Source: Acidobacteriota bacterium
GTDB lineage: Bacteria; Acidobacteriota; Thermoanaerobaculia; Thermoanaerobaculales; Sulfomarinibacteraceae
Assembly: GCA_024641545.1 (NCBI GenBank)
Contig: JAHECW010000005.1
Coordinates: forward strand, 6,067 to 70,066
Direction of reading: 5' to 3'
Length of the DNA stretch: 64,000 bases
The notes under the pieces were generated by a model. That model was not told the DNA's origin. It did no database searches and worked only from the letters and a program-made list of their open reading frames with translations. Shown here in pieces: positions 3,401 to 20,541 of the stretch. The translations under genes and the position numbers were made by a program. Each line of letters starts with the position of its first letter. Within the stretch, counting starts at the first letter, position 1.

Positions 3401-4098
3401 ACCGGCTCTCCCTCCTTGTTCAGGGCCTGCGCGACGTGGCGGCCGGTCTCAGCCGGGAAGTGCCATCCGAGTTGGAAGACCAGACGGGTGAACGGATAGA
3501 GGACACAGTGCGCGATCTTGGTGATCGGAACCAGCACCAATACCAGATCCCCGACAAGCACGTGCAGCAGCAGCATGGTCCGGGCGGCAAACGGGCTGAA
3601 GGCCGGATTCGCCGCCCACCAGCCGAAAAGAACGAGGGCAAACAGGATGACGAGCACGAGCACGTCCCCCGCCCGGGTGATGGCACGCGAACTCGCGGAC
3701 CCGAGCCGGCCCACGACCAGCGCGAGCAACGCCGCCAGGGAAACCAGGGTCACACCGTCGGCAACCGCCTCGGGAATGACCGGCCACCAGACCGGGAGAA
3801 TTCCGGGGAGCAACGCCGCATGCCCGGCCAGAAACAGCGGCACCACGAGCACGCCGACGTGGAAGAGCACCGACGCGGAGCTGTAGACCGGCCGCTTGTG
3901 CCACAAACGGCGGGGCACGAGCCAACCGGCAGTGGCGGCGACAATGTCGCCGAGCGGCAGCCGGCGATCGCCGGCGCGGTGCCACGCAACCGCGATCTGT
4001 CCGACCAGGGTGACGATTCTGTAGCCGAGCCCGAGAACGCACACCGTGAGAGCGATTCGAAAGAGCGGACCACGAGCAAACTCGATCCAGCCGTCCAT
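3397..4098 (-). CDS. NarI/DsrM/HmcE-like membrane cytochrome b subunit
   Basis: 233 aa with 5-6 hydrophobic helices. Conserved-looking intramembrane His residues (LFHVGVL, AGHAAL, LLLHVLVG, KIAHCVL) fit two haem b sites of the nitrate-reductase-gamma family. Sits immediately downstream of the CCG-domain gene. Confidence 0.7.
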   Translation of the reverse strand: MDGWIEFARGPLFRIALTVCVLGLGYRIVTLVGQIAVAWHRAGDRRLPLGDIVAATAGWLVPRRLWHKRPVYSSASVLFHVGVLVVPLFLAGHAALLPGILPVWWPVIPEAVADGVTLVSLAALLALVVGRLGSASSRAITRAGDVLVLVILFALVLFGWWAANPAFSPFAARTMLLLHVLVGDLVLVLVPITKIAHCVLYPFTRLVFQLGWHFPAETGRHVAQALNKEGEPV

Positions 4099-4105
4099 GA
4101 AGACC

Positions 4106-5500: not shown

Positions 5501-5544
5501 GGGAATCCCTTCGGCGCAGCGGGCTGTCGTACCACCCATCGGTA

Positions 5545-5562
5545 GAGCATTTGTTGTGCCAA
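5545..5562 (-). promoter_or_regulatory. Sigma-54 (-24/-12) promoter of the DsrK-like/cytochrome operon
   Basis: The minus strand reads TTGGCACAACAAATGCTC. This is TGGCAC-N5-aTGC with correct GG-N10-GC spacing and one mismatch to TGGCAC-N5-TTGC. It lies ~35 nt upstream of the ATG at 5500 and faces away from a sigma-54 activator gene 145 bp away. Confidence 0.6.
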
Positions 5563-5590
5563 ACCCGAGAATTTTCATGAAACCATTTGT

Positions 5591-5603
5591 TATCAATAAT
5601 TTA
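5591..5603. promoter_or_regulatory. IHF-like bending site between the sigma-54 promoter and the divergent activator gene
   Basis: TATCAATAATTTA fits WATCAANNNNTTR. It lies in the only strongly AT-rich patch of the 5563-5706 intergenic region, ~30-40 bp upstream of the -24 element. Confidence 0.25.
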
Positions 5604-5706
5604 TTAGTGAGTCTGAGAGAAATTTCCGCTTTCGTAATGTCGCGAAATTGGAACTGATGTCTCGAAGGTATTGTAAATATGGAACACTCGATGGATAATC
5701 GGCAAC

Positions 5707-7044
5707 ATGACACACAGGATCGATCCCCGCTATGGCAGCCTGATCTTCGACAACATTCCGCACGGGATCTTCACCGTCGACGCCGAACGGCGAATCACCT
5801 CCTTCAACCGCGCCGCCGAGGAAATCACGGGCTGGTCCCAGGAGGAGGCTCTCGGTCGTCCGTGCACGTCGATCTTCAACTCCAACCACTGCGCCGGCCG
5901 CTGCTTCCTCTTCAACAGCATCGAGCGCGGCGAGCCCCACCGCGACTGCGAGGTCCACATCATCAAGCGAAACGGCACCGAGATCTCGGTCGCGGTGAGC
6001 ACCGCGAGCCTGACGAGTGATGACGGCGAGGTCATCGGCGGGATCGAAATGTTCCGCGACCTCACCGAGGTCAATACCCTCCGGCGGGAACTCGAGGGGT
6101 CCTACCAGATCGGCGATATCGTCTCCAAGAGCGCCGCCATGAAGGGTGTCCGCGATCTCCTTCCGCTCGTTGCCCGCAGCGACAGCACCGTGCTCATCGA
6201 AGGCGAGCCCGGCACCGGCAAAGAACTGGTTGCACGAGCAATCCACAACATGGGTCCCAGGCGGGAGGGCCCGTTTGTCGGGGTCAACTGCGGCGCCCTG
6301 CCGGAATCGCTCGTCGAGTCCGAGCTCTTCGGCCACGTCCGCGGCGCTTTCACCGACGCAAAAAGGGACAAGCCCGGCCGTTTCGCCGCCGCCCAGGGGG
6401 GAACCCTCCTCCTCGACGAGATCGGCGACATCTCGGCCGCGGTGCAGGTCAAACTCCTTCGGGTGCTCCAGGAACGCGAGTACGTGCCTCTCGGATCCTC
6501 GGAGCCCGTCAAGGCCGATGTCAGGATTCTCGCCGCCACCAACCGTGATCTGTCACACGAGGCGATGAACGGCCGCTTCCGCCAGGATCTCTATTTTCGC
6601 CTCAACGTGGTTCGGATCGTGCTGCCGCCGCTGCGTTCCCGGTGGGAGGACATCCCGCTCCTGGTGCAACACTTCATCGAGCGCTTCAACAACCTCCAGG
6701 GGCGCCGGATCTGCGGCATCTCCGAACGCGCCATGACAACCCTCGCGGGTCACTCCTTCCCGGGCAACGTACGCGAACTCGAAAACGCCATCGAACACGC
6801 TTTCGTGGTGTGCGCCGGCAACACCATACGCCGCGAAGATCTGCCGCCGCACATCCGCGGCGAGGCCGCCGTCCCGCCGGAGGCATCCCGGGAATCTGCC
6901 GGCGGTCCGCTCGACGCGGCCGAGGCCGCGGCCATTCGTGACGCTCTCAGGCGCTATTCCAACAACCGAACCGAGACCGCCCGGGGACTGGGCATCTCGC
7001 GGAATACGCTTTGGCGGAAGATGAAGAAATACCGGATACCATGA
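5707..7044 (+). CDS. Sigma-54-dependent transcriptional activator (PAS - AAA+ - Fis-type HTH; no receiver domain)
   Basis: N-terminal PAS (IPHGIFTVDAERRITSFNRAAEEITGW). Walker A GEPGTGKE, GAFTDA loop, LLLDEIGD, PGNVRELEN. C-terminal HTH ETARGLGISRNTLWRKMKKY. Confidence 0.9.
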   Translation: MTHRIDPRYGSLIFDNIPHGIFTVDAERRITSFNRAAEEITGWSQEEALGRPCTSIFNSNHCAGRCFLFNSIERGEPHRDCEVHIIKRNGTEISVAVSTASLTSDDGEVIGGIEMFRDLTEVNTLRRELEGSYQIGDIVSKSAAMKGVRDLLPLVARSDSTVLIEGEPGTGKELVARAIHNMGPRREGPFVGVNCGALPESLVESELFGHVRGAFTDAKRDKPGRFAAAQGGTLLLDEIGDISAAVQVKLLRVLQEREYVPLGSSEPVKADVRILAATNRDLSHEAMNGRFRQDLYFRLNVVRIVLPPLRSRWEDIPLLVQHFIERFNNLQGRRICGISERAMTTLAGHSFPGNVRELENAIEHAFVVCAGNTIRREDLPPHIRGEAAVPPEASRESAGGPLDAAEAAAIRDALRRYSNNRTETARGLGISRNTLWRKMKKYRIP

Positions 7045-7129
7045 TCGATCACGTTCACGTTCCCGGTCGCGGCCTTTTCGGGATCGGAAGCGGGATCGAA
7101 GGTGACAAAGCTCCGAACTCAAAAGGAAC

Positions 7130-7149
7130 GGCCCGCCGATCGGCGGGCC
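7130..7149. terminator. Bidirectional hairpin between convergent genes
   Basis: Perfect 20-nt palindrome GGCCCGCCGATCGGCGGGCC (8-bp GC stem, 4-nt loop). T-rich tract follows on the minus strand (GTTCCTTTTGAG) and a weaker one on the plus strand (GCTGCTGTTCTGATTC). Confidence 0.6.
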
Positions 7150-7177
7150 GCTGCTGTTCTGATTCGATCGTTCGGGC

Positions 7178-8782
7178 CTAGTGCCATTCCCAATCGATAA
7201 ATCCCGGCTTGACGTCGACCATGGCGTTGACGATGAGCTCCACCAGACCGCCGTAGTAGATCCCGGCCTTCTCGAATGCATCGTAGTAGGTGATGATGTC
7301 GCGGATCTGGCCCTTGCAGTTGGAGCACGGCGCGCAGACGTACTTCATGTGCGACGGATCCATGGACTCGTCCTGGAAGGCATTGAGGATCTGGCGGAAT
7401 TTCCGCCGCCCGGTCATCCGATGGCGCCAATCCTTGAAATTGTGGCCCGACATGATGGCGAAGCCCGAACCGCCGCCGCAGCAGTAGTTCTCGACCCCGT
7501 GCGGCGCCATTTCGCGGAAGCGGCCCTCGGGCACCACCGCGTCGATGATCTCGCGCTGCGGCGAGACGATGCCCATGAGGCGCACCAGGTTGCACGGATC
7601 ATGCAGGGTCACCGGGAAGTCGTTGCGGCTCTTGTCGAGCTTGAGCACACCCGATCGGATGATATCGCGCAGGGTCACCATGGAGCTCTCGCGCGGGATG
7701 TTGAGGTCGCCGGTGAGCACCTTGTCGGCGATGACCGTGAGGGCTTTGTGGGCGTGGCCGCACTCACCGAGGACGATCTTTCTGACTCCGAGTTTCTTGG
7801 CGATGGCGGCGTGCCGCACCGCGACCCGCGCGAACTGGACGTCGTCGTACCAGACCCCGTAGTTGATCCCGTCGTAGCCGATGGCATCGGACGACAGGGT
7901 CCAGCTGAGGCCGGCCGCTTCGAAGACCGTGGCGAAGGCGCCGGGGTTCTCGGGCCAGGCCATGATCTCACCGGCATTGTGGATGAGGAGGATGTCGGCG
8001 CCGACCTTGTCGAACGGCGTCTCGATGGTGATGCCGGTGCGCTCCGCGGTGTCTTCGTCGATGAACTCGATGTTGTCCTTGACGATCATCGGGGTCATAC
8101 CGGTGGATGAACCGACCCTGAGCTGAAGCACGGACCCGTCGTCGTGGATCTCCTTGGGAACGATCCCCATCTCCATGCTCGCGATCTTCCGGATCTCGCG
8201 CGACAGCAGCGCGTTGTCGGCGCCGATGGGACAGGTCTGGGCGCAGCGGCGGCAGAGGTTGCAGCGGTAGCTCAACTCGATGAGCCGGGCCACCGTCTCC
8301 CAGTTGAGATCGATGTCGCCGTGCAGCGAAGGCGAGGCCTTCTTGACGTACTTGAAGTAGATCCGGCGCAGGATTTCGGAACGATAGACGGGTCGGTAGA
8401 GTTCGTTCTCACCGCTTTCCTGGAAGATCGGGCAGGCGTCGGAGCAGGTGTGGCACTTGGCGCAGTGCTCCATCGACATCTCGAAGGGCTGGAGGAACGT
8501 CCAGTTGTCGTCGACGCTGAAGAGCTTCTCGAGACCGCTGAGGAAGCCGTTGACCAGCTTGTCTTCCTCTTCCTTGGTCTTCGGTTTCTCGATATTGACC
8601 GCGATGGTGTCGTCGAGAACGACGTACTTTTCGCGGGCGGCGTCGGAGAGCTGGGCGAACTCGGGCTCTTCGTCGATCTTGTCAAAGGGGGGCGGCAACG
8701 GGATCTGTTCGTACTGGTTGATCTGGGCGAGGGGTTCGCCCGGATTCTTCCCCATGTCCTTGACGCTGTTGGGCTGTTTCAT
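7178..8782 (-). CDS. Second DsrK/HdrD-like Fe-S protein with CCG domain
   Basis: CAKCHTCSDACP and CNLCRRCAQTCP ferredoxin motifs. LHDPCNLVR ... NYCCGGGSG ... CAPCSNCK CCG signature. ATG overlaps the upstream stop (ATGA). Confidence 0.85.
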   Translation of the reverse strand: MKQPNSVKDMGKNPGEPLAQINQYEQIPLPPPFDKIDEEPEFAQLSDAAREKYVVLDDTIAVNIEKPKTKEEEDKLVNGFLSGLEKLFSVDDNWTFLQPFEMSMEHCAKCHTCSDACPIFQESGENELYRPVYRSEILRRIYFKYVKKASPSLHGDIDLNWETVARLIELSYRCNLCRRCAQTCPIGADNALLSREIRKIASMEMGIVPKEIHDDGSVLQLRVGSSTGMTPMIVKDNIEFIDEDTAERTGITIETPFDKVGADILLIHNAGEIMAWPENPGAFATVFEAAGLSWTLSSDAIGYDGINYGVWYDDVQFARVAVRHAAIAKKLGVRKIVLGECGHAHKALTVIADKVLTGDLNIPRESSMVTLRDIIRSGVLKLDKSRNDFPVTLHDPCNLVRLMGIVSPQREIIDAVVPEGRFREMAPHGVENYCCGGGSGFAIMSGHNFKDWRHRMTGRRKFRQILNAFQDESMDPSHMKYVCAPCSNCKGQIRDIITYYDAFEKAGIYYGGLVELIVNAMVDVKPGFIDWEWH

Positions 8783-9714
8783 TTGGTCTGGTCCTCCAAG
8801 GTCACGTCAAGCCAGCTTTTCTTACCGTCGGCTCCGATGTGCGGCGCCGACCAGGTCACCGGCCTCGAGAGGAGTTCCTGGATGGTCCCCTCCTGCCGGC
8901 CGCCGGCCAGGTTCGGCTCATCCGACCAGCGGATGGAGTGGTAGGCGAAGTACTTGCCGATGAAATGCGACATATGGGTCGTCGGGATGTAAGCGGTGAG
9001 CAGCGCGAGCAGCACCACCGACAGAGTCAACAGCAGGCCGGCCGGCCCGGCTCCGACCGGTGCGAGGTCGAAGGTCACCAGATTGGTGATGAAGGTGGTG
9101 ACCATGGAGAAATCTCGGTCGTAGACGACAAGAGACACCAACGAGACTCCGAAGGCGGCGATGAAGAAGACGAGGTTGAACAGATCGGCCGGCGCCGTGT
9201 AGTCGCGGAGGGCGCGGCTGCGGCGGCGCATGAAGAGCCCGATGGCGCCGATGATCCCCAAAACCAGCCCTGCCCCACCGAGGAATGGAGCCACGAGGTT
9301 GACGATCTTGGCCACGGGTGCCGCAATGTTCTCCGGAAGATAGCCGACAACCAACCCGCCGGCGAGCATGAGCGCGGTCACGCCGCCCACCAGGTAGAGT
9401 CCGAAGTGAAACGGAAAGGAGCGGGTCCAGAGCTTCTTGTTGTGCTCTCTCAGCGCAACCAGAAAGAGGATCTCCGGCACCATGACCTTGAGCTCGCCGA
9501 AGAGCGAGACCTCGCGTTTCTTGGTCCACCACTCGGTGTCTTCGAGATAGGACCCACCGTACGCGGCCTTTCCACCGCCCTCGTGCGCGACGGGATAGAG
9601 TTCCCACCGCACGTGCATCGGCATCTTCGACCACATCATGAATCGGGCGATGCACGCGATGAGAAAGAAGACGAGGCCGAGGTAGGCGACCACGTACGCG
9701 AAAGTAGTCATCAT
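8779..9714 (-). CDS. Second NarI/DsrM/HmeC-like membrane cytochrome b subunit
   Basis: Polytopic membrane protein with the typical N-terminal stretch MPMHVRWELYPVAHEGGGKAAYGGSYLED...FPFHFGLY. The track start at 9720 is GTG; the ATG at 9714 or 9711 follows a GAGGTG RBS, so the start is uncertain by a few codons. Confidence 0.75.
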   Translation of the reverse strand: MMTTFAYVVAYLGLVFFLIACIARFMMWSKMPMHVRWELYPVAHEGGGKAAYGGSYLEDTEWWTKKREVSLFGELKVMVPEILFLVALREHNKKLWTRSFPFHFGLYLVGGVTALMLAGGLVVGYLPENIAAPVAKIVNLVAPFLGGAGLVLGIIGAIGLFMRRRSRALRDYTAPADLFNLVFFIAAFGVSLVSLVVYDRDFSMVTTFITNLVTFDLAPVGAGPAGLLLTLSVVLLALLTAYIPTTHMSHFIGKYFAYHSIRWSDEPNLAGGRQEGTIQELLSRPVTWSAPHIGADGKKSWLDVTLEDQTK

Positions 9715-10281: not shown

Positions 10282-11736
10282 TCAGCGGTCGATGATCTCC
10301 GGCGGAATGTGGTGCAACGGAAGCACCATCGTCACCGTCGTTCCGAGTCCCACCGCGCTCTCGAGCGAGACCTTGCCGCCGTGCATCTGCGCTGCTTCCC
10401 GCACGATCGAGAGCCCGAGCCCGGTGCCTTCGGCTTGGGCGTGCTTGGCGTTGGGGGCGCGGACGAACTCGAGAAAGACATCATCCTGGAGCTCCTTCGG
10501 AATTCCGATTCCGTCGTCCGCGACCACTACCATCGCGTGGGATCGATCGATGCCGAGGGCCACGGTGACGGTGCCGCCCCCCGGCTTCGAGTACTTGATC
10601 GCGTTGTGGATCAGATTCTCGAAGGCGTAGACGAGATCCGGAGGCACCGCCCAGTCGAGGACTGCGGCGCCCTCGTTGATGAAGTGCGGAATCAGCTCCA
10701 CATTCGCCTCGCGGGCATAAGGGTCGAGCGCATCGAAGAGGTCGGCCAGAATCTGATTGATGCTGACCTTCCGGGTCCACGGCGCCCGGGCCCGGCCCTC
10801 GCGCATCTTGGCCAGCTCCAGGAGATCGTTGACGATGGCGAGGAGCGAGTCCACCCGCGCCGCGGTTCCCTCCAGCAGCCGGCGACCATCGGCAGACCCC
10901 GGTTCGACGTAACCGTCGATCAGGACCTGAATCGACGTCTTGATGGTTCCCAGCGGTGATCGGAGTTGGTGGGCGGAAATCCTCATGTAGTGCGATTTGC
11001 GACGCTCCACCTGGGCCTGTTCTTCGAGGGCGCGGCGGAGCTCTGTGGAGGTCTCGTGGAGTTCGATGTTGCGCGCCTTGAACCGGCTGGTCACCGAATC
11101 CGTGAGATAGACCACACCAAAGACCAAGACCACGAGCATGGCCATGCTGAGGACGCAGCTGCCGACCGTCGACCGGCCGCCCACAACCGTGGCGACCTGT
11201 GCGAGCACACCCAGGTGCTCGAGGGCAAAGAGACTTGCCGCCGCCCCGGCCACCGCAAAGCCGAGTCCGTACATGGTTCGGCCGTCGATCATGATCGTCC
11301 CGATGGCCATGTGGAAAACCACGAACGGCAGGACCGGGCTGGAGCATCCTCCGGTGAAGTGAACCGTGAAGAAGAGCGCCGCCAGATCGGTCACCATCTG
11401 CAGGATGGCGAGCCCCCTGAGCGCGGCGTAGTCCTTTTCGGGACCGAGCCTCGCCCGGAGCACATGGATGAAGACGACGTTGTAGAGGGCGACCAGCACG
11501 GCGACAACGGCCAGGCTCGGGGAGGTCGAGGGCATGGAGAAATACGGCCCCAGCACCGAAGCCAAAGCGAGGCCGAGGGCGGCCAACCAGCGCAGCTTGC
11601 AGAACCAGAGCAGTCGCTCGTGGAGTTCCCAGGAAAAAATGTAACTGAATCGGTTCTTTTCAGTCCCACTCCGGTGCCGCACCGCAGAACCCGGTGCGCC
11701 CTGGGTCTGCGGACGCGGTCCGGTCGATTCTCCCAT
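10282..11736 (-). CDS. Membrane sensor histidine kinase
   Basis: About six N-terminal hydrophobic helices. HisKA H-box ISAHQLRSPL. HATPase motifs (NLIHNAIKYS, DDGIGIP, GTGLGLSIV). Confidence 0.85.
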   Translation of the reverse strand: MGESTGPRPQTQGAPGSAVRHRSGTEKNRFSYIFSWELHERLLWFCKLRWLAALGLALASVLGPYFSMPSTSPSLAVVAVLVALYNVVFIHVLRARLGPEKDYAALRGLAILQMVTDLAALFFTVHFTGGCSSPVLPFVVFHMAIGTIMIDGRTMYGLGFAVAGAAASLFALEHLGVLAQVATVVGGRSTVGSCVLSMAMLVVLVFGVVYLTDSVTSRFKARNIELHETSTELRRALEEQAQVERRKSHYMRISAHQLRSPLGTIKTSIQVLIDGYVEPGSADGRRLLEGTAARVDSLLAIVNDLLELAKMREGRARAPWTRKVSINQILADLFDALDPYAREANVELIPHFINEGAAVLDWAVPPDLVYAFENLIHNAIKYSKPGGGTVTVALGIDRSHAMVVVADDGIGIPKELQDDVFLEFVRAPNAKHAQAEGTGLGLSIVREAAQMHGGKVSLESAVGLGTTVTMVLPLHHIPPEIIDR

Positions 11737-11739
11737 TGG

Positions 11740-12138
11740 TCAGGGCTTCGCTTCGCCCGGTCCGACGAGCTCACCGACCTTGCGCATGAGATCTTCGGGC
11801 GAGATCGGCTTTTCGAGGTAGTGGTCCGCCGGGACCCACGACTCGTCGACCTCCAGTCGCAGGTTGTAGACGCGATCGACTCCGGTGAGGATGATGATCG
11901 GGATGAGCGCGGTCGCGTCGTTGTTCCGAAGGGAACGGGCGACATCGAACCCCTCGGACATGTGGTCCATCATGACGTCGAGAACAATCAAATCCGGCGG
12001 ATCGTCGTCAACGACCGCCAAGGCTTCGGTGCCGTTGGCAACGGTCCGCACGTGATACCGCGTCCCGAGCACCGCGGCCACCGATTGAACGAAAACCGGA
12101 TCGTCGTCCGCAACCAGCACCGTCGGTCGCGGCATCAT
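11740..12138 (-). CDS. Stand-alone receiver-domain response regulator (CheY-like)
   Basis: 132 aa. VLVADDDP ... DLIVLDVMMD ... ILTG ... YLEKP receiver pattern with no output domain. GGAGTGG RBS. 4-nt gap to the kinase gene. Confidence 0.85.
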   Translation of the reverse strand: MMPRPTVLVADDDPVFVQSVAAVLGTRYHVRTVANGTEALAVVDDDPPDLIVLDVMMDHMSEGFDVARSLRNNDATALIPIIILTGVDRVYNLRLEVDESWVPADHYLEKPISPEDLMRKVGELVGPGEAKP

Positions 12139-12260: not shown

Positions 12261-13895
12261 TCATCCGCAGGAGCCGGTGGGACAACCCCGACCGGAGAGG
12301 TGGGCTTCATATTCTTTCCGGAAATTGCCCAGGCCGGTGATGACGGAACCGGTGGCATTGCGACCGAGTTCGCACAGGGACGTCTGTCGAATGTGCCGGC
12401 AGAGCCGTTCCAGACGCTTCAGGTCGGACGCCTCTGCCTGACCCGAACCGATGCGATCGAGGAGATTGAGGACCACCCTGGTCCCGATCCGGCAGGGCGG
12501 ACACGTCCCGCACGACTCTTCGGCGCAGAAGGCAACAAAATAGCGAGCGAGAGCCACCGGACAGCTGCCCGGGCCGAGCACCACGACGCTCCCCGAACCG
12601 AGATTGGCCTCGTGGTTGCGGAGCGACCCGAAATCAACGGTGGTGTCGAACTGGGAGCGAGACAGGGTCACACCACCGGGACCCCCGAGGTGGGCTCCCA
12701 GAACCCCGTCGTCGGCGCCCGCGCCGGCGATCTCCTCAACGATCCTGGCAAGGCTCGTCCCGATCGGCACCTCGGCCACCCCGGGTCTGGGGACGGCGCC
12801 CGACACGCTGACCACCTTGGTGCCGGACGGACGGACATCGGCGCCGAGCCGCTCGGGCAGCACGATCAACGGGATGTTGGCCAGCGTCTCGAGACCGTTG
12901 ATCAAGGTCGGGCAACCCCACAGGCCGCTGACCGCCGGGAACGGCGGACGGGGCCTGGCGACCGCGCGACGCCCCTGGAGCGCGTTGAGCAACGAGGTTT
13001 CCTCGCCACCCATGGACGCCCCGGCGTTCTCGCAGATCTCGATCGAGAAATCGAACCCCGAACCGAGAATCCTCGAACCGAGAAAACCCCGATTCCGAGC
13101 CTGCTCTACGGCCCGCTCGGCGCGGGCGACGGCCAGGCGGTGCTCCGATCGGAGAAACAGCCGACCCTCCCTGGCGCCCACCGCATAGCCCGCGATGGCC
13201 ATCCCTTCGACAACACTGTGCGGGTCTCCTTCGACGAGGGTGCGATCCGCGGTCGGTCCCGGGTCGCCCCCTTCGCCGTTGCCGACGACATATCGGATCT
13301 GTCCCGGCGTGTCGGCGACCAGCGCCCACTTCAACCCGACGGGGAACCCCGCCCCGCTCCGTTCCTGGAGACCGGATCGCTTGACCAGATCGATGATCTT
13401 CACCGGATCGAGATCGAGGAGCGATCGCCGCAGCGCATCATAGGCACCGAGCGTAACCGCGTGTTCCACATCCTCGGGATCGACGACGCCGCACCGGGCC
13501 AGCACCTGACGATCCTGGTTCGCGAAGAACGGATTGTCCGCCAGTCCCCGGTATCGCTGACCGCTCGCGGGTTCGAGATACAGCAATCGGTCGATGACCT
13601 CGGATCGACCGACCGTGCGATCGAGGATCTCGTCCACATCCTCCTGCCTGACCCGACAGTAGAGCACGTCCAGTCCTGGAAGGTGGACCAGCGGACCCTG
13701 ACTGCAGAACCCACGGCACCCGACCACGCACGGCTTCGACTCGATCGTGACCTTTGATCCGGAGCCGGCCGCGCCCCCTTGCAGCGCTTCAATCACCTCG
13801 AGGGCACCGAGGGCGATGCAGCCGCTGCCGCCGCAGACACGAATCGCCACCGGAGTCCGGTCCGGAGCCTGCGAGGCGGTCGTCGGCGCCGTCAA
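12261..13895 (-). CDS. NuoF/HoxF/HndC-like NADH-binding FMN/Fe-S subunit with N-terminal thioredoxin-like [2Fe-2S] domain
   Basis: RVCGGSGC...CRGFCSQGP (2Fe-2S), GAGFPVGLKW (NADH site), GGEETSLLNAL (FMN site), ESCGTCPPCRIG (N3 cluster). Start trimmed from 14015 to the TTG at 13895. That TTG overlaps the NuoE-like stop (TTGA) and follows GGAGGA at a 6-nt spacing. A GTG at 13850 is an alternative. Confidence 0.85.
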   Translation of the reverse strand: MTAPTTASQAPDRTPVAIRVCGGSGCIALGALEVIEALQGGAAGSGSKVTIESKPCVVGCRGFCSQGPLVHLPGLDVLYCRVRQEDVDEILDRTVGRSEVIDRLLYLEPASGQRYRGLADNPFFANQDRQVLARCGVVDPEDVEHAVTLGAYDALRRSLLDLDPVKIIDLVKRSGLQERSGAGFPVGLKWALVADTPGQIRYVVGNGEGGDPGPTADRTLVEGDPHSVVEGMAIAGYAVGAREGRLFLRSEHRLAVARAERAVEQARNRGFLGSRILGSGFDFSIEICENAGASMGGEETSLLNALQGRRAVARPRPPFPAVSGLWGCPTLINGLETLANIPLIVLPERLGADVRPSGTKVVSVSGAVPRPGVAEVPIGTSLARIVEEIAGAGADDGVLGAHLGGPGGVTLSRSQFDTTVDFGSLRNHEANLGSGSVVVLGPGSCPVALARYFVAFCAEESCGTCPPCRIGTRVVLNLLDRIGSGQAEASDLKRLERLCRHIRQTSLCELGRNATGSVITGLGNFRKEYEAHLSGRGCPTGSCG

Positions 13896-14449
13896 CGCCG
13901 GTCCTCCGGCCGACGATCGGGGCCGAGGAGCTCGGTCACGAGATCGCCGGCGGCGGCTTCTGTCTCCACGCCGCGAACCCGGTCCTCGATCCGAATCACC
14001 GGCGCGAGGCCGCACACGGCGAGACAGCGCTCCTGGCGCACGGCGAGGGTCGGCTCGCCGGCGATCGGCGGCCGTTCAGCCACCGCTCGGTTGATCCGGC
14101 GCAGCACCCCTTCCCCTCCACACAGGAAACAGCCGGGTCCGGTGCAGACATCGACGATGAGCCGGCCGCGCCGCTCGGAACTGAGTTGCGGGTAGTAGCT
14201 CACAACCCCGGCAACCTGGGCGGGTGAGAGGCCGAACCGGTCCGCCACCAACTCCTGCACTCTCCACGAGACCCTGTCAAAGACCTGCTGGAGACCCAAG
14301 AGCACTCGAATCAGCCCCTCCCGTCCGCCGGGCGCCTGCGCCAGCAACTCGTCGACCAACTCGATCACCGCCGGATCGAGGGCCTCCGCACCATCGCCGC
14401 CTTCGGTGCCGAAGAAACCGGAGTCGGTGATGTCGTCGGTAATGCTCAT
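13892..14449 (-). CDS. NuoE-like thioredoxin-fold [2Fe-2S] subunit
   Basis: VVSYYPQL...VDVCTGPGCFLCGG...CLAVCGLAPV signature. The ATG at 14449 (MSITDD...) lies 2 nt after the upstream stop; the track start at 14476 is a GTG inside the upstream gene. Confidence 0.8.
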   Translation of the reverse strand: MSITDDITDSGFFGTEGGDGAEALDPAVIELVDELLAQAPGGREGLIRVLLGLQQVFDRVSWRVQELVADRFGLSPAQVAGVVSYYPQLSSERRGRLIVDVCTGPGCFLCGGEGVLRRINRAVAERPPIAGEPTLAVRQERCLAVCGLAPVIRIEDRVRGVETEAAAGDLVTELLGPDRRPEDRR

Positions 14450-14451
14450 CG

Positions 14452-16962
14452 TCAGGCCTTTCTCACCTTGACCCACAGGACCTCGCCGCCCTCTTCAAAG
14501 AGGGTCGAAGCTCCATAGCGGCTTCCAACCCAGGGGACGATTACGGTTCCCTGGAGAACCGTTCGATCGAGCCGGGCACGCAGCAGAACCTCTCCCTTGT
14601 CGCTCGACACCGCGACGACTTCACCGCGAGCCACGCCGAGGGCGCGCGCATCGGCCGGGTTGATCCGAACCGCCACCGTCGGCGACAGTTCCTGGAGCAG
14701 CGCGCTGCGCATGGTGACCGAGCCCGAGTGAAAGAGCTGCGGCGCGGCATCGAGCAGAAAACCCGATGCGCCGGCCGCCGCGCGGGGTGGTGAAACCGGA
14801 GTCAGCCGCCGGGGCTGAGATCGTCGCCACCTCCATCCCACCACCCGATCCAGCTCGCGGAAGAGGGCTTCGCCCGTCGGGAGCGACGAGCCCATCCGGC
14901 GTGCGAGTTCGACCAGGATCACCGTATCCGACCTGACTCCGGCAGGGGGACCGAGCGCTCGCCGCAACGGCCGTCGAATACCGTCGGCGCCCACCGTCGT
15001 TCCTTCGCGTTCGCTGAGAATGGCCGCCGGAAGGACCACGTCCGCTCGTTCGGCGGTGCTCGTTCGAAACGCATCGACGACAACCGAGAAACCCGCACCC
15101 TCCACGACCCGCCGAGGATCTTCGCCGCGCGGAAGCAGGTCGATGGGATCAACGCCGACGAGAAGGAGACCCGATGCGGCGTCGGGACCGGCCTTGACCC
15201 AGTCCGAGACCGACCAACCCGCCTCCGAGATGGTCGCGCGCCCGGTGAGATCCTCGAGCTCGACCGCCTGGTTGATGAGCCGATGGCCGGGCAGGAGACG
15301 CGGGTGGAGGCCGACATCGACCAGCCCCTGGACATTGGACCGACCGCCCAGAACGAGCAAACCCGCATCGCTTCCGCACAACGCCGTCAGTGTCGCGGCC
15401 ACCCGCGCCACCGCCGCCTCGTTCCCGGGCACACCGGAGCCGGTCCCCATGATCATCACCGGCCGGCGTGCGGCCGCCAACCGGGAGGCCAGACCGTCAA
15501 TCCGCTCAGCCGTGAGCCCGGTCGCCCGGGCGACCGATTCCGGCGAGAACGCCTCGATGGATCGACGCCAGGCGTCATACCCCGGCAGGTGTTCGATCCT
15601 CCTCGAACGAGGGCCATCGAGAGCCAACAACCGGACCGCCACGGCAACCAGGAGATCGCTGACCGACCCGGGGGCCGGCCGAAGCACATCGGCCGCGTGC
15701 CGATCGAGGCCGCCCGCAACCGGGCTTACCGCGATCACCGGCACCCCCCGTTGGACCGCCGCCTGCACCAGTTCGGTCTTGACCAGCGGGTGACCCCGAC
15801 TCGGATCACTCCCGAAGACCAGTACGAGATCCGCCAGCCTGATCTCGTCAAAACCCGCAGTCGAACGCGGTCGGTCGAAGACCTCCCAGACCCCGTCCAC
15901 CAGCGCCGGCGCTCCGCCGACCGGCGCCATGTCGACGTGCGGACTCTTGAGCACCTCGCGGGCCAGCGCCTGCAGGAGGTAGCCGTCCTCACAGCTCAGC
16001 CGGCCGCCCCCGGCCACCATCACCGGGCCGCGTCCCGCGGCACGTCGAAGGCCGTCCGCCGCCGACGCCAGGCCTTCCTCCCAGCTCACCTCGACCAGCG
16101 TTCCGTCCTTGCGGACCAACGGCGCTCTCAGGCGTTCGGGGTTCGCCACGACATCGAGACCGAGCCACCCCTTGACGCAGAGCTTGCCGCGATTGGGTGA
16201 ACCACCGACCGCTGAGGTCACGCGTTGGAGCCGGCCTTGGTGGTTCTCCACCGACACCTCGCAACCGCAGCAACAGAAGGAGCAGGTGGTCTTGACCCGC
16301 GCTCGTTGCCAGACCGGGATCGGCGACGCGTACGGCTGCGCCACCAGGGCCCCCACCGGACACGCATTGACGCACTGGCCGCAGAACTCGCAGTCCAGCG
16401 GCCGGTCGAGAAAGGTCGCAACGTGGGTTCCCATACCCCGCCCCAGAAAAGCCAGGGCCGCGACCCCCTGAACCTCCTCACACAGGCGGACGCAGCGACC
16501 GCAGACAATGCACTTCCCAGGGTCGCGAATGATCACCGGGGAGGCTTCGTCTCGCGACGCCGGTTTGAAGTCGAACGGCAGAATGTCGTCCGGGATCCCG
16601 ATCTCGTGGACCAGATCCTGGAGGCGGCAGTCCGCGTTGCGTTCGCAGACCGGGCACTCCATTCGATGATTGAGCACGAGCAACTGGAGTTGCTGTTGCC
16701 GGGCTTCGACCACCGCCGGGCTGTCGGTCAGGATGACCATCCCGTCCTGGATCCGCGTCGAGCACGCCGGGACCAGGGCCCCCGAGGCGTCCGCCCGCTC
16801 GACCACACACATCCTGCAGCCGCCGTACGGCGTCAAACGATCATCGTGGCACAGGGTCGGCAGCCGGATTCCGAGTTCCGAGAGCACGTGGATGAGCAAC
16901 CGGTGCCTGGCCGTTCGCACCGGCCGCCCATCGACCGTGAGGGATACGGGTAGGGTTTCCAT
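14452..16962 (-). CDS. NuoG-like Fe-S / molybdopterin-oxidoreductase-fold subunit (apparently non-catalytic MopB domain)
   Basis: N-terminal 2Fe-2S (LCHDDRLTPYGGCRMCVVE). CPVCERNADCRLQD and CIVCGRCVRLCEE...CEFCGQCVNACP clusters. MopB cluster CSFCCCGC...LCVKG. The region aligned to the formate-dehydrogenase active site reads LKSPHVDMAPVGGAP, with no Cys or in-frame TGA. Confidence 0.8.
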   Translation of the reverse strand: METLPVSLTVDGRPVRTARHRLLIHVLSELGIRLPTLCHDDRLTPYGGCRMCVVERADASGALVPACSTRIQDGMVILTDSPAVVEARQQQLQLLVLNHRMECPVCERNADCRLQDLVHEIGIPDDILPFDFKPASRDEASPVIIRDPGKCIVCGRCVRLCEEVQGVAALAFLGRGMGTHVATFLDRPLDCEFCGQCVNACPVGALVAQPYASPIPVWQRARVKTTCSFCCCGCEVSVENHQGRLQRVTSAVGGSPNRGKLCVKGWLGLDVVANPERLRAPLVRKDGTLVEVSWEEGLASAADGLRRAAGRGPVMVAGGGRLSCEDGYLLQALAREVLKSPHVDMAPVGGAPALVDGVWEVFDRPRSTAGFDEIRLADLVLVFGSDPSRGHPLVKTELVQAAVQRGVPVIAVSPVAGGLDRHAADVLRPAPGSVSDLLVAVAVRLLALDGPRSRRIEHLPGYDAWRRSIEAFSPESVARATGLTAERIDGLASRLAAARRPVMIMGTGSGVPGNEAAVARVAATLTALCGSDAGLLVLGGRSNVQGLVDVGLHPRLLPGHRLINQAVELEDLTGRATISEAGWSVSDWVKAGPDAASGLLLVGVDPIDLLPRGEDPRRVVEGAGFSVVVDAFRTSTAERADVVLPAAILSEREGTTVGADGIRRPLRRALGPPAGVRSDTVILVELARRMGSSLPTGEALFRELDRVVGWRWRRSQPRRLTPVSPPRAAAGASGFLLDAAPQLFHSGSVTMRSALLQELSPTVAVRINPADARALGVARGEVVAVSSDKGEVLLRARLDRTVLQGTVIVPWVGSRYGASTLFEEGGEVLWVKVRKA

Positions 16963-16969
16963 CCCGCCC

Positions 16970-19204
16970 TTACTCCGGCGCCGGAGGAGCCAACCGGCGG
17001 ATGGACCACTTTGATCTGAGTCGGTTGGCGAGCCGCATGACGATGCCGGGTTCGGGGTCGAGGGCGTGTTCGACCGAACTCGGCATCATCAGCAAATCGA
17101 GAAGGTGGATCGTCTCGCGGCCGGCGTCACGCAGCGCGCTTCGGCAGCCGATGCAGTAGGTCACCATGGGCAACCGGGTCTGGCCGGACGCGCGGGCGGC
17201 GATCTTCGAGAAGAGCTCCGGATCGACATTTTCGATCTTGCCGCCCGAACCGCAACACCTGGTCCGCTCGTGCGAGTATTCGGTCTCGACCACCTCGGCG
17301 CCGCTGGTTCTGACCAGGGTTCGGATCGCCGCATGGACCTCGGGATTGTGCCGGCTCCGACACGGGTCGTGAACCGCGAACCGTAGATCATCGTATCGCT
17401 GGATCGGGTCCCAGGTCTCCGCCAGCACCTCCCAAACCGAGCTCACCTGAACTTGTGGAAACCACTCGGTCAGCATCTCCTGACACTGGGGACAGGCAGC
17501 GATGAGCTCCTCGGCACCGAGGTCATCCATGGCAGCGGCAATGTGCTCCCGCGCCCGCGCACCTTCTGCTTCCAAACCGAGAATCTCGGCGGGCACGCCG
17601 CAGCAGTACATCAGAACGCCGATCCTCGGATCCTGGCGCAGGAGGTGTTCATAAAGTACCCGGGTCTGTTTCGGCGAGGTGGCGGGCAGCTCGCACCCGG
17701 TGAAGAAGAGACGCCGGGCACGGCGACGGCCGGGCGCGGCGGCCGCGAGCGAAAAGGTGTTCGACAGCCCGGCCCGGAGTTCACGCTGAACCTGGCGGTG
17801 CTCCGGGAGCGGCGCCAACCCCTCGCGAACCGCCTCCCGGCGCGCCGCGAGCATGAGCTCACCGGTATCCAACCCGACCGGACACAAAGTGGCGCAGAGA
17901 CCGCAGATGTTGCACGAGTAGATCGTCTCCACGTGGTCATCGATACCCGCGGCCACCCGCCGAGCCAGATCGCGCGGCGAGTTGCAGTGGCGGGCGAGAA
18001 ACTCGCAGTCGCGAACACAACGATCGCAGGTGCAATCGAGGCAGCGTTCACCTTCGCCGCGAACCTCCCTCTCGGTCATCGGCGGCGCTGCCGGCTGTAG
18101 GAGCAACGGCGTTCGCTGACGGCGGCGGCGCTCGCTCTCATCGATGCCGAGCTTCCAAAGGAGCGGCGGCGGCTGCGTCGCCGAACCCGGATATTCCAAC
18201 GCTTCACCGTCGATGAAACGACGCGCTGATTCGGCCGCCCGCCGACCGTGGGCCATCGCGTCGATGACCGACGTCGGCCCACTGATGGCGTCGCCGGCGG
18301 CGAAAAGCCCCTCCTCACCGGTTTCGCAGGTCACCGGATCGGCCTTGATGGTGTCCCGAGCGCTGGCCTCGACGGCCCCGGCGCCCGATCGCAGGAGTTC
18401 CTGCCCGCCGGCGAACCCCAGCGTCAAGAGCACCACGTCGTGGCGAGCCCGAAGCTCGGCCAGGCTGAGGTCCCTTCCCAGTTGGACGCCCGTTCGGACA
18501 TCGATCTCGAGCGCCGCGATGATGGAGAGGTCGCGCGCACGTACCCTTGCAGGGAGCCGCCACTGAGGTATCCGGGTGGCCAGGCAACCACCGAGCTGCG
18601 GCTCCCGGTCGAAGATCGACACCTGGAATCCGGCACGCCGGAGATCGTGGGCGGCCATCAATCCCGCGGGGCCGGCGCCGACCACGGCGGCGCGCTGCGA
18701 ACGAGACCCGGCCATGGTCAGGATGTGCTCGGGCTCGCCCTCCTCCGACTCGGCCAGGAAACGCTTGATGTCACGGATCCTGATGGCCCGGTCGAGTTCG
18801 AGTCGCTTGCAGTGAAGCTCACACGGCTGGGTGCAGACGTAGCCGAGGATTCCGGGGAAGGGCAGCTTTTCGCGAACGGTCTGCAGCGCTTCGCGAAATC
18901 TCCCGGCGCGGGCAAGCTGGACATAGAGATGGGCGTCGACCCGGATCGGGCACCGTGCCTCACAGTTGGCTGGACCTTCGCCACGACAGCGGTCGAGCAT
19001 TCTGCCGGCGAGCTCGATCACCCGCGTGCGCATGGCGGTGGGCGAGTCGGACCCGGATCCGCCCGGGCTGGTGCCGCGAACGCCGTACCCGTCACCGGCG
19101 CGTAACATGACCTGCACCATCGGTGTTACCCAACCGACGCGACAAACGGGCGACGGAGAGCGGAGAGGCGCAGCCGCCCGGTACGGTTTCCCATGCCAAA
19201 GCAC
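16970..19204 (-). CDS. Fusion protein: GltD-type N-terminal Fe-S domain + FAD-binding fold + HdrD/GlpC-like 2x[4Fe-4S] + two CCG domains
   Basis: CEARCP...YVCTQPCELHCKR (GltD/DPD domain-II-like). VVGAGPAGLMAAHDL...GGCL and FAAGDA (FAD). CLDCTCDRCVRDCEF and CNICGLCATLCPVG. CCG motifs FFTGCE...MYCCGVPAE and VHDPCRSRH...RCCGSGGK...YCIGC. The true start is uncertain: 19204 is GTG, and ATG candidates lie at 19120, 19108 and 19033. Confidence 0.75.
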   Translation of the reverse strand: MLWHGKPYRAAAPLRSPSPVCRVGWVTPMVQVMLRAGDGYGVRGTSPGGSGSDSPTAMRTRVIELAGRMLDRCRGEGPANCEARCPIRVDAHLYVQLARAGRFREALQTVREKLPFPGILGYVCTQPCELHCKRLELDRAIRIRDIKRFLAESEEGEPEHILTMAGSRSQRAAVVGAGPAGLMAAHDLRRAGFQVSIFDREPQLGGCLATRIPQWRLPARVRARDLSIIAALEIDVRTGVQLGRDLSLAELRARHDVVLLTLGFAGGQELLRSGAGAVEASARDTIKADPVTCETGEEGLFAAGDAISGPTSVIDAMAHGRRAAESARRFIDGEALEYPGSATQPPPLLWKLGIDESERRRRQRTPLLLQPAAPPMTEREVRGEGERCLDCTCDRCVRDCEFLARHCNSPRDLARRVAAGIDDHVETIYSCNICGLCATLCPVGLDTGELMLAARREAVREGLAPLPEHRQVQRELRAGLSNTFSLAAAAPGRRRARRLFFTGCELPATSPKQTRVLYEHLLRQDPRIGVLMYCCGVPAEILGLEAEGARAREHIAAAMDDLGAEELIAACPQCQEMLTEWFPQVQVSSVWEVLAETWDPIQRYDDLRFAVHDPCRSRHNPEVHAAIRTLVRTSGAEVVETEYSHERTRCCGSGGKIENVDPELFSKIAARASGQTRLPMVTYCIGCRSALRDAGRETIHLLDLLMMPSSVEHALDPEPGIVMRLANRLRSKWSIRRLAPPAPE

Positions 19205-19361
19205 GGCATCCGCCGGCCGGGACCAGGGCTCGAATCAGCCGAAACGGTCCACGGCAGCGGCCGGTTTGCCGGTTGAGGTCACGAGTCGTTGGCCGAGGTC
19301 CGGCGCGACAAGCCCCGCGGGAGGTCCATCCAGGCACACCTCACCTCTCGGGCGAAAACGC

Positions 19362-19378
19362 TGCAAGTTGTGTGCCGA
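19362..19378 (-). promoter_or_regulatory. Sigma-54 (-24/-12) promoter upstream of the NuoEFG-like / CCG-fusion operon
   Basis: The minus strand reads TCGGCACACAACTTGCA. This is cGGCAC-N5-TTGCA with exact spacing and one mismatch to consensus. It lies in the gap between the DsbA-like stop (19408) and the fusion gene. Confidence 0.55.
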
Positions 19379-19407
19379 CGAAGTTTGTCGAGCCCGACGG
19401 CGGAGGG

Positions 19408-20541
19408 CTAGGGTTCTTCTCCCTTGGCGAGCCGCGCGATGAGGCCCGGGAACCACTCCGAATCGGGCATCTGGATCATCCAGCCGTTGACGAAATAGGT
19501 CGGCGTGGCGTTGACCCCCATCTGGTGGCCGAGGGCGAGCTGGGAGTGGACCGCCGCCAGCGAGACGTTCCGCAGATAGCAGCCACGAAAGAGGGTTTCA
19601 TCAAGGCCTTGACCGGCGACGAAATCCAACGACGTCTGCGTCACCAGGCCGACCTCCATCTCACGCTGGAGATCGTAGAAGAGCTCCTTGAATCCGATGA
19701 CCTGCTGAGTGTCGAGCTCGCCGACACACCATGTCGCCGACGAGGCGCGAAAGGCCCACGGGTGGATGGAGGTCAGCGGAAAGCTGACCATCCCGTGCCG
19801 CACCGCTCCGCCGTTCTCTTCCATCACTGCTTTGACCATCGGCCACTTGGCCTTGCAGGCCGGGCATTCGAGATCGGAAAACTCGACGATCTCCACCTTC
19901 GCCCCATCGCCGCCCGGGTGGTCCCAGACGACAAATGCGTTGGCGCCGAACTGCGCCCTGCGAATGGCCACCGGATCACCGTCCAACGGCATTCCGGAGG
20001 CCATGATGAGGTAGTTTCCATCCGAGGTCACGGCGACGGGTTTTGGAAACTCGCCATACCCGGTGTCCACAATCAGGTTGAAGGGGATGAGGGCGCCGGA
20101 TGTCGCTCCTTCCGGCACATCCCAACTCAACCTGACCTTCATGTTCATGTTGCGCTGAAGGACTTCCGGCAGGAAGCCTTCGAGGAACGGACGCAGCGAT
20201 CGCGGCGCCGTACCGGTTTGTTGAAAGGGGAGTTGGCCGACGCTGCCGAGATAGGCGAGACCGGTCACCTCGTCGATGACGACGGAAGGCTCGCCGGTCA
20301 GGATCTTGTTCTCGCAGGTGCGGGAAACCCTCACCGTCCGGTACGAACCCGACGGTGTCGGGGTGCGTTGATCGGAGACGATCCTGAATGACGAGTCCGG
20401 ATACCAGGGGATGGACCGCTCGACAAAACGCAGAACGACCGGATCCTGGGCGATGAGCGGATCATCGGCGGCATCCACGACCACGCCGCCGAACACCACG
20501 ATCATCGCCAGCACACCGGTCGAGACCTTATTGAACTTCAT
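19408..20541 (-). CDS. Secreted DsbA-family thiol:disulfide oxidoreductase with an extra N-terminal domain
   Basis: Start trimmed to MKFNKVSTGVLAMIVVFGG (signal-like), preceded by GGGAGG; the longer track ORF overlaps recA. Thioredoxin-fold active site FSDLECPACK. Confidence 0.75.
   Translation of the reverse strand: MKFNKVSTGVLAMIVVFGGVVVDAADDPLIAQDPVVLRFVERSIPWYPDSSFRIVSDQRTPTPSGSYRTVRVSRTCENKILTGEPSVVIDEVTGLAYLGSVGQLPFQQTGTAPRSLRPFLEGFLPEVLQRNMNMKVRLSWDVPEGATSGALIPFNLIVDTGYGEFPKPVAVTSDGNYLIMASGMPLDGDPVAIRRAQFGANAFVVWDHPGGDGAKVEIVEFSDLECPACKAKWPMVKAVMEENGGAVRHGMVSFPLTSIHPWAFRASSATWCVGELDTQQVIGFKELFYDLQREMEVGLVTQTSLDFVAGQGLDETLFRGCYLRNVSLAAVHSQLALGHQMGVNATPTYFVNGWMIQMPDSEWFPGLIARLAKGEEP

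Follow-up and report, generated by a model that had tools for sequence, protein, structure and literature searches.

How does a flavoprotein of the GltD type receive its electrons when the domain that would bind NAD(P)H is missing from it, and where do these electrons go? This question is raised by a gene, here called X, in a stretch of 64,000 nucleotides from an Acidobacteriota bacterium (Thermoanaerobaculia; GenBank assembly GCA_024641545.1, contig JAHECW010000005.1, positions 6,067 to 70,066 of the forward strand), referred to below as the window. X joins a GltD-like N-terminal half to an HdrD-like C-terminal half, and its gene is followed by three genes, G, E and F, for proteins resembling NuoG, NuoE and NuoF. 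In the reading that we prefer, to which we give about an even chance, X is the substrate-side subunit of a soluble four-subunit X-G-E-F complex that uses NADH, does not bifurcate electrons and reduces a sulfur-sulfur (S-S) bond at the CCG sites of X.

Gene X occupies positions 16970..19108 on the minus strand, the strand of all its domains and operon partners described below, and encodes 712 amino acids from an ATG at 19108. Starts at 19120 and 19033 (the JGI gene call) would give 716 and 687 amino acids, and the maximal open reading frame (ORF), 16970..19204, comprises 744 codons counted from a GTG at 19204. Domains and cysteines are numbered here on the 744-residue ORF, whereas the AlphaFold2 model and Cys175 follow the 712-residue form. 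The N-terminal half begins with a Fer4_20 domain (PF14691; 18743..18994, residues 71-154; 59.1 bits against a cut-off of 25.8), the GltD/NfnB/DPD-type site for two [4Fe-4S] clusters, with six invariant cysteines (C73, C81, C85, C124, C128 and C132). A Rossmann domain that binds flavin adenine dinucleotide (FAD) follows at 18245..18700 (Pfam residues 169-320) and carries the motifs GAGPAG, GGCL and FAAGDA. The C-terminal half opens with an HdrC-like ferredoxin region (Fer4_17; 17867..18046, residues 387-446) holding two [4Fe-4S] motifs with invariant cysteines, the first atypical with five cysteines (CxxCxCxxCxxxC) and the second canonical (CxxCxxCxxxCP). Two CCG domains complete the protein, at 17471..17707 (C504, C534, C535, C571, C574) and 17132..17377 (C615, C650, C651, C684, C687), and the spacings C504 x29 CC x35 CxxC and C615 x34 CC x32 CxxC show both five-cysteine motifs to be complete. 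Across 68 homologues, all ten CCG cysteines, the other cluster cysteines and the FAD motifs (GxGxxG, GG and GD) are invariant. The HdrD/GlpC-type C-terminus proposed in an initial annotation of this locus is thereby borne out, and the motifs that it quoted (CEARCP, CTQPCELHCKR, VVGAGPAGL, GGCL and FAAGDA) are all present. We also observed a conserved basic helix (NRLRxKW) at the C-terminus.

Members of the GltD/NfnB family combine a Fer4_20 domain and an FAD fold, both found in X, with a second domain for NAD(P)H, which X lacks. Its single Rossmann fold covers just positions 142-291 of the 291-position Pyr_redox_2 profile of Pfam. In phmmer searches against the Protein Data Bank (PDB), X residues 52-264 align to residues 76-287 of NfnA (9bov_A) and X resumes at residue 265 with NfnA residue 432, leaving about 145 NfnA residues without a counterpart; the alignments of StnC (8oh5_C) and Thermococcus NfnA (9n5u_A) skip in the same way. 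Alignment with four relatives that keep the domain (P0124, P0128, P0363 and P0385) places a block of about 146 residues, with the second dinucleotide motif GGGNVAxD, at a junction segment of X (18305..18415, residues 264-300), where X has no such block. An AlphaFold2 model built on 68 homologues (mean predicted local distance difference test score 86.9, predicted template modelling score 0.76) has one helix only between the strands at 225-228 and 268-270, and no second beta-alpha-beta fold. Foldseek searches with this model returned NfnA, StnC, NfnI-L and GltD for the N-terminal half. The absence of the second fold, which the initial annotation had read from the short spacing of motifs, thus holds in profile, alignment and model alike. 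Because the NAD(P)H domain has been excised, X cannot bind NAD(P)H itself, and for the same reason its FAD would be fed by iron-sulfur (Fe-S) clusters and not by hydride transfer.

A further residue of the FAD fold sets the family apart. Cys175 (18682..18684, minus strand), directly after the FAD 'GG' in GGCL, is invariant in the 68 X-family members; its equivalent is Met in the four aligned relatives with an intact NAD(P)H domain and Asp or Pro in two core members of the NCBIfam family NF045663 described below. It might lie near the flavin as a residue peculiar to the family.

An electron input for X is suggested by its operon. Gene G (14452..16962), which encodes an 836-amino-acid NuoG/FdsA-like Fe-S scaffold, begins 7 nt past the end of X. 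It is followed by E (13892..14449; 185 amino acids), a NuoE/HydC-like [2Fe-2S] subunit in which the four conserved cysteines are kept (2Fe-2S_thioredx, 79 bits), and by F (12261..13850; 529 amino acids), a NuoF/HydB(BfuB)-like subunit for flavin mononucleotide (FMN) and NADH with an N-terminal thioredoxin-like [2Fe-2S] domain (Complex1_51K, 111 bits; NADH_4Fe-4S, 96 bits). The gaps between the four genes are 7, 2 and 41 nt, and the order X-G-E-F recurs in about 40 sufficiently long loci among 46 species genomes, including loci in which identity in X falls to 49-56%. The closest solved relatives of F are HydB/BfuB proteins (7t2r_B, 452 bits, vs 280 bits for Nqo1), so that F stands nearer to HydB than to Nqo1 or FdsB. 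No genes for the Nuo membrane arm or Q-module were found in the roughly 10 kb that flank X on each side. Where the initial annotation spoke of a NuoF-like partner, the NuoF-like gene is indeed there, together with a separate NuoE-like gene and a scaffold whose catalytic site is dead.

This scaffold, G, has Fer2_4, NADH-G_4Fe-4S_3 and Fer4 domains (Pfam) and aligns best to FdsA of Rhodobacter capsulatus (6tg9_A, 282 bits). Formate dehydrogenases carry a molybdenum-ligand cysteine or selenocysteine followed by histidine, and a catalytic arginine. At the position of FdsA Cys386-His387, G has Gly-Gly ('apvggapa' vs 'arvchspt' of 6tg9_A), and the catalytic arginine finds no aligned counterpart ('lggrsnvqg' vs 'lrgqnnvqg'). 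For these reasons formate dehydrogenase was rejected as the partner activity; judged by its residues, G is an Fe-S scaffold with a catalytically dead molybdopterin-like domain.

From these parts we infer the order and direction of electron flow. NADH would be oxidised at the FMN of F, and the electrons would pass through the Fe-S clusters of E and of the scaffold G to the two [4Fe-4S] clusters and FAD in the GltD-like module of X. The clusters of the HdrC-like ferredoxin region would relay them to the CCG domains and their two non-cubane [4Fe-4S] sites of the HdrB type, where an S-S bond in a disulfide, persulfide or polysulfide on a carrier would be reduced. A connection of this kind has a structural precedent, since in the solved NfnABC/StnABC structures a GltD module feeds a NuoG-like Fe-S chain (PMC11829005, PMC12018979), and by phmmer and Foldseek the GltD module of X is most similar to that of NfnA/StnC.

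The neighbourhoods of relatives outside the X family are consistent with this wiring. The NuoE/F/G trio is absent from all six sampled loci of fusions that keep the NAD(P)H domain, one of which has an unrelated NuoF-GltD fusion gene two genes upstream, as against its presence in about 40 X loci. Two core members of NF045663, a group also without the domain, adjoin a xanthine-dehydrogenase-type molybdoenzyme with a 2Fe-2S subunit. The sample is small and its pattern consistent, and it supports the view that forms without an NAD(P)H domain are paired with another electron-input module, which in the X family would be NuoEFG-like. The suggestion in the initial annotation that X is an adaptor with no NAD(P)H use of its own, relying on a NuoF-like partner, agrees with these counts. 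We also observed that DUF7479 (about 70 amino acids) follows NF045663 core genes and one intact fusion (L055 10346..10558, L056 10310..10528 and L139 8814..8999) and is fused to the C-terminus of P0167 at residues 808-866. Its companions are a C_GCAxxG protein, a methyltransferase, an HMPTM-type radical SAM enzyme and an AMP-binding enzyme, a conserved accessory set without counterpart in the window.

The C-terminus of F bears on whether the window enzyme could also use ferredoxin. The Bfu family is defined by a BfuB subunit with a C-terminal 2x[4Fe-4S] ferredoxin-type domain (PMC9304861), and in solved Nfn-Bfu structures low-potential electrons exit through the B3 and B4 clusters of this domain, where ferredoxin docks (PMC12018979). 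The window locus has the BfuC and BfuA layout as well as the FMN site and NuoF-type 4Fe-4S cluster of BfuB, and lacks the C-terminal domain: F gives no Fer4 match and ends at ...CPTGSCG, just past the N3-type cluster. The domain is missing from F throughout the clade of the window (X at least 69% identical), and the loci of this clade leave no room for a separate gene that encodes it. In most loci of a sister clade (X about 50-56% identical), F carries an extra ferredoxin domain of 61 residues and eight cysteines, and these enzymes qualify formally, by their domains, as Bfu-type. Since F of the window clade has lost the B3/B4 domain, the window enzyme is most likely a plain, non-bifurcating NADH-dependent reductase, in which electron exchange with ferredoxin at this site is improbable. 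The window clade also lacks two features of the sister clade that are described below, namely a small gene for a four-cysteine protein and a rhodanese/VTT gene pair.

The architecture of X is not confined to this contig. More than 400 homologues share its Pfam architecture, and the gene was found in 46 species-representative genomes, nearly all from Acidobacteriota (Thermoanaerobaculia, Holophagae and Vicinamibacterales). The possibility that assembly had wrongly merged two genes, which the initial annotation had raised as a way in which its reading could fail, was ruled out because the fusion is present without a frame break on hundreds of independent contigs and in these 46 genomes. The further statement that the domain order belongs to no named family did not survive. 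NF045663 ('diclust_near_Sec', pyridine nucleotide-disulfide oxidoreductase/dicluster-binding protein) shows the very arrangement of X: Fer4_20, then an FAD fold that has no NAD(P)H domain, then an HdrC-like ferredoxin and a pair of CCG domains. X matches it in one continuous stretch (X residues 70-735 vs profile positions 9-661; E = 1.8e-151), and its 505.8 bits fall below the curated membership cut-off of 530, as do the 523 and 476 bits of the cluster representatives P0121 and P0122; P0117, a member of the X clade, nonetheless carries the family name at NCBI. Profile positions 662-759, a C-terminal extension of about 100 residues, are unmatched by X, which lacks it. Core members of NF045663 score 930-1020 bits, are about 32% identical to X, and have as neighbours a xanthine-dehydrogenase-type molybdenum enzyme, DUF7479 and a radical SAM gene, whereas the neighbours of X are NuoEFG. 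We found no paper or experimental work on the GltD-HdrD fusion, the NCBIfam name or the X-G-E-F operon. The protein family itself has been catalogued without being characterised, and its conserved operon is undescribed.

A profile search that took in 1.84 billion representatives separated three related groups. The X family measures about 705-716 amino acids. Intact GltD-HdrD fusions of about 830-860 amino acids form a very large group in Chloroflexota, Desulfobacterota, Syntrophales and Desulfitibacter, so that the fusion with its NAD(P)H domain kept is abundant among anaerobes. The NF045663 core (about 750-790 amino acids, mostly Chloroflexota) is also without the domain. The intact fusions, such as P0363 of Desulfitibacter alkalitolerans (annotated 'FAD-dependent oxidoreductase'), are the closest relatives outside the X family, with 37-38% identity and 550-650 bits to the X profile; they share its N- and C-terminal modules and all cluster cysteines and, unlike X, keep the domain with GGGNVAxD. 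A crude neighbour-joining tree, midpoint-rooted and not bootstrapped, makes the X family and the intact group sisters, sets the NF045663 core on a separate branch and nests P0132, which lacks the NAD(P)H domain, inside the intact group. From these placements the domain has probably been lost more than once, at least two or three times by this tree.

A related deletion may exist in another context. HdrA proteins with an inserted NfnB/GltD-like module have been described from ANME-1 and Bathyarchaeota (PMC9012536, PMC12054007). We observed a protein of 1328 amino acids, P0171, in which a GltD-like module is fused to HdrA2; its Pyr_redox_2 match spans profile positions 131-291 only, so that this module, too, seems to lack the NAD(P)H domain. 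The same point may be worth examining in the GltD/NfnB inserts of HdrA, which have been inferred to bind NAD(P)H (PMC12054007, PMC9012536).

Several known systems share parts with X-G-E-F. The NfnABC/StnABC enzymes (PDB 9bov, 9n5u and 8oh5), like X-G-E-F, combine a GltD-like module, a pterin-inactive NuoG/Fdh-like scaffold, a NuoE-like subunit and a HydB-like NuoF, and they give the best sequence or fold matches for the N-terminus of X and for F. In these enzymes the GltD module forms part of the NuoG-like subunit, with NADPH bound as third substrate, whereas that of X sits on a separate protein, has no NADPH domain and is joined to an HdrD-type module instead, and the window F lacks B3/B4. 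From FdsABG and NuoEFG the locus has NuoE and NuoF homologues (E and F), with G best aligned to FdsA. X shares with HdrD, HdrBC and DsrK an HdrC-like ferredoxin and, after it, two CCG motifs that hold the complete set of cysteines for two non-cubane [4Fe-4S] clusters. X differs from HdrD in its atypical five-cysteine first ferredoxin motif, its operon contains no membrane partner such as HdrE or DsrM, and, since the host is not a methanogen, CoM-S-S-CoB is not the expected substrate. In our view X-G-E-F is best placed among the NuoEFG/Bfu-core oxidoreductases, as a variant whose terminal module is of the HdrD type.

The proposal of an S-S substrate is supported by the completeness of both CCG motifs, which are HdrB-like, and by genes that recur near relatives of X. 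In most sister-clade loci the cluster is followed by a pair of genes for a secreted tandem rhodanese (about 320 amino acids) and a VTT/DedA membrane protein (about 250 amino acids), and the pair also adjoins intact fusions in Desulfitibacter and in an unclassified metagenome contig. It thus accompanies GltD-HdrD fusions in three distant lineages (L002 19150..21017; L052, from Desulfitibacter, 14234..15968; L138, the metagenome contig, 2877..4584), and in P0345 and P0355 a VTT domain is fused onto the intact fusion itself. Among NCBIfam families the rhodanese matches best to ExtH, a rhodanese of selenite/tellurite reduction, at 79 bits and so below the cut-off. YeeE-TusA-YeeE come directly after the fusion gene in Desulfitibacter alkalitolerans.

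In the window itself, the operon is followed on the minus strand by genes for a receiver-only response regulator (11740..12138) and a PilS-like histidine kinase (10282..11736), which are syntenic with it in most loci. Next come a DsrM/NarI-like membrane cytochrome b (8779..9714) and a DsrK/HdrD-like protein (7178..8782), both on the minus strand and downstream of the operon in many relatives. In the window (about 540..9714, minus strand) and in L051 (9069..18246), this pair is followed by a divergent sigma-54 activator, beyond which lie genes for a second HdrD-like protein, a 233-amino-acid protein, a Fer4_11 protein and an NrfD-cytochrome c3 fusion that together resemble DsrK'JOP. A dense set of CCG-domain redox modules is therefore gathered in one neighbourhood downstream of the operon, and these Dsr-like genes are a further hint of an S-S substrate. 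No dsrAB, dsrC or other sulfur genes were found among ten long ORFs scanned at 32-64 kb, which were housekeeping or uncharacterised (Lon, CarAB and peptidases).

Upstream of X on the minus strand, 19408..20541 encodes a secreted DsbA/Thioredoxin_4-like protein of 377 amino acids with a signal peptide and a CPAC motif. It weakly matches the Rcas_1661 thioredoxin-like (seleno)lipoprotein family (42 bits against a cut-off of 190), and the gene and recA are syntenic upstream of X in part of the family; a 558-codon ORF listed around these positions is over-extended. The protein was rejected as a substrate of X, given that its signal peptide and DsbA-like CPAC motif make it extracytoplasmic and that it is adjacent in only part of the loci.

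Several observations weigh against the NADH-dependent reduction of an S-S bond. The rhodanese/VTT pair, the small four-cysteine gene and YeeE/TusA are all absent from the 64-kb window; the FMN/NADH motifs of the window F are somewhat divergent (e.g., SGAGFP and NGEGGDPG); and if electrons pass straight along the Fe-S chain, the FAD would have no evident task. CCG domains are also part of enzymes whose chemistry is not disulfide reduction, among them GlpC, GlcF, LutA, SdhE and EtfD, and one intact relative adjoins fumarate-reductase-like (SdhA/SdhB-like) genes. These last two points lead to an explanation that we regard as unlikely, in which the CCG domains of X would exchange electrons with a quinone, with a partner in the membrane (for instance the DsrMK-like pair) or with a substrate that is not a sulfur compound. 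Mycobacterial EtfD, an HdrD-like protein, ranked tenth in the Foldseek search, weak NCBIfam matches to TfrB, LdhH, GlpC and GlcF were obtained, and the basic C-terminal helix could serve in docking; however, X has no transmembrane segment, both of its CCG motifs keep five cysteines as in HdrB, and the recurrent neighbours are sulfur-trafficking genes. Hdr-like modules run oxidatively in sulfur oxidisers, and the nearby DsrMK-type and DsrKJOP-like genes would suit an sHdr-like reverse operation of X, with thiols or sulfane sulfur oxidised at the CCG site and electrons delivered to NAD+. We hold this to be very improbable: thiol/disulfide couples are generally more positive than NAD+/NADH, so that the reduction of NAD+ would need extra driving force, and the window contains no genes for a lipoate-binding protein, DsrE or TusA.

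Two other explanations concern bifurcation. The complex could be a Bfu-type bifurcating or confurcating enzyme whose F-E core couples NADH and ferredoxin to a third substrate at X, as in NfnABC/StnABC and HydABC. The match of E, F and G to the Bfu A/B/C layout, the BfuB subunits among the best solved relatives of F, the closeness of the N-terminus of X to the GltD module of NfnA/StnC and the BfuB-defining 2x[4Fe-4S] domain in F of the sister clade (PMC9304861) all speak for it. For the window we nevertheless judge it to be unlikely, because F of the whole clade lacks the B3/B4 domain at which ferredoxin binds in the solved Nfn-Bfu structures (PMC12018979), with no room for a separate gene, and because a disulfide-type acceptor is more positive than NAD, which would make co-oxidation of ferredoxin unnecessary. 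The strict conservation of FAD motifs in a protein that no pyridine nucleotide can bind would also fit a flavin that acts like that of HdrA, reduced by clusters and bifurcating to the high-potential CCG site and, via the Fer4_20 clusters, to a low-potential acceptor. HdrA provides a precedent for a bifurcating FAD fed by clusters only, and in NfnSL the homologous FAD is the bifurcating flavin, with two [4Fe-4S] clusters as its low-potential branch (PMC12018979); yet the operon offers no identifiable low-potential acceptor site or ferredoxin-binding module, and we find this improbable. More tentatively than the NADH-dependent reductase itself, we propose a wider scheme in which X-G-E-F would be an NADH-dependent HdrD-type enzyme of non-methanogens that uses NADH and ferredoxin in the sister clade and is 'de-bifurcated' in the window clade, with the Fe-S-fed FAD of X perhaps a second bifurcation site. 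Such enzymes would form an undescribed NuoEFG/Bfu-core class with an S-S bond as third substrate.

The initial annotation left four candidate starts for X between 19204 and 19033, and three of these remain. An in-frame TGA seven codons upstream of the 19108-equivalent in four close relatives excludes 19204, and the G+C content at third codon positions (GC3) is 0.61 in 19204..19121 vs 0.84 in 19108..19034. Gene calls in most relatives start at the equivalent of 19108 or 19120, although the ATG at 19120 is missing in L005 and that at 19108 in L009. Met58, the JGI start at 19033, is Leu in P0006/L007, and the two indels seen in the spacer are both multiples of three (6 nt lost in L010, 12 nt in P0002). 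These indels and the GC3 values favour translation from 19108 or 19120. On sequence evidence we put the start at 19108 with slightly better than even confidence; 19033 is possible and clearly less probable, and 19120 is doubtful. The functional domains of X begin downstream of all three.

Conservation of an 'MLRxGD' peptide was considered as proof of the 19108 start and set aside, since the stretch is a nucleotide element that is conserved as DNA and lies outside X in sister clades, which makes it unusable for choosing a start. In the window the element, GGGTAAC-N17-GTTACGCGCCGGTGAC (19091..19131, minus strand), overlaps the candidate starts at 19120 and 19108 and translates from the latter as M-L-R-A-G-D. 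Its consensus, roughly (G)GTTTCG-N5-GTGCY-N7-9-GTTACG-N4-GGTGAC, is found upstream of X in nearly all clades, and GTTAC-N6-GTNAC within it forms an imperfect palindrome. Sister clades have it 35-140 nt ahead of the X start, outside the ORF, at the 3' end of the small four-cysteine gene, and it persists where that gene has been lost. The element may be an operator or an RNA element. An Rfam search of the leader region gave no match, and a scan for sigma-70 promoters and terminators gave nothing informative.

The small gene directly upstream of X in sister clades (L002 9646..9903, and at least 25 other loci) encodes a protein of about 85 amino acids with four cysteines (CxxC ... LSSxYGSTRGxxGxC ... 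FxDPxxxC) that matches nothing in Pfam or NCBIfam. The window (19109..19407) and nearly all of its clade yielded no homologue, and an ORF at 19092..19337 shares just the last few codons with it.

If the wiring proposed here is true, X-G-E-F joins an NADH module of the complex I/Bfu type to an HdrB-type disulfide-reducing site through a flavin that is blind to NAD(P)H, and the Bfu family, many clades of which were left without an assigned function in a previous survey (PMC9304861), would gain a 'third substrate' linked to sulfur. The clades with and without the ferredoxin-binding domain provide a natural comparison for the parts that bifurcation needs. Acidobacteriota are abundant in soils and sediments and have been implicated in sulfur cycling (PMC8528874), and the X enzyme is common among their Thermoanaerobaculia, Holophagae and Vicinamibacterales. 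The recurrent loss of the NAD(P)H domain, if the tree is a fair guide, marks the GltD-HdrD unit as a cassette for electron transfer that is portable and is paired with different input modules.

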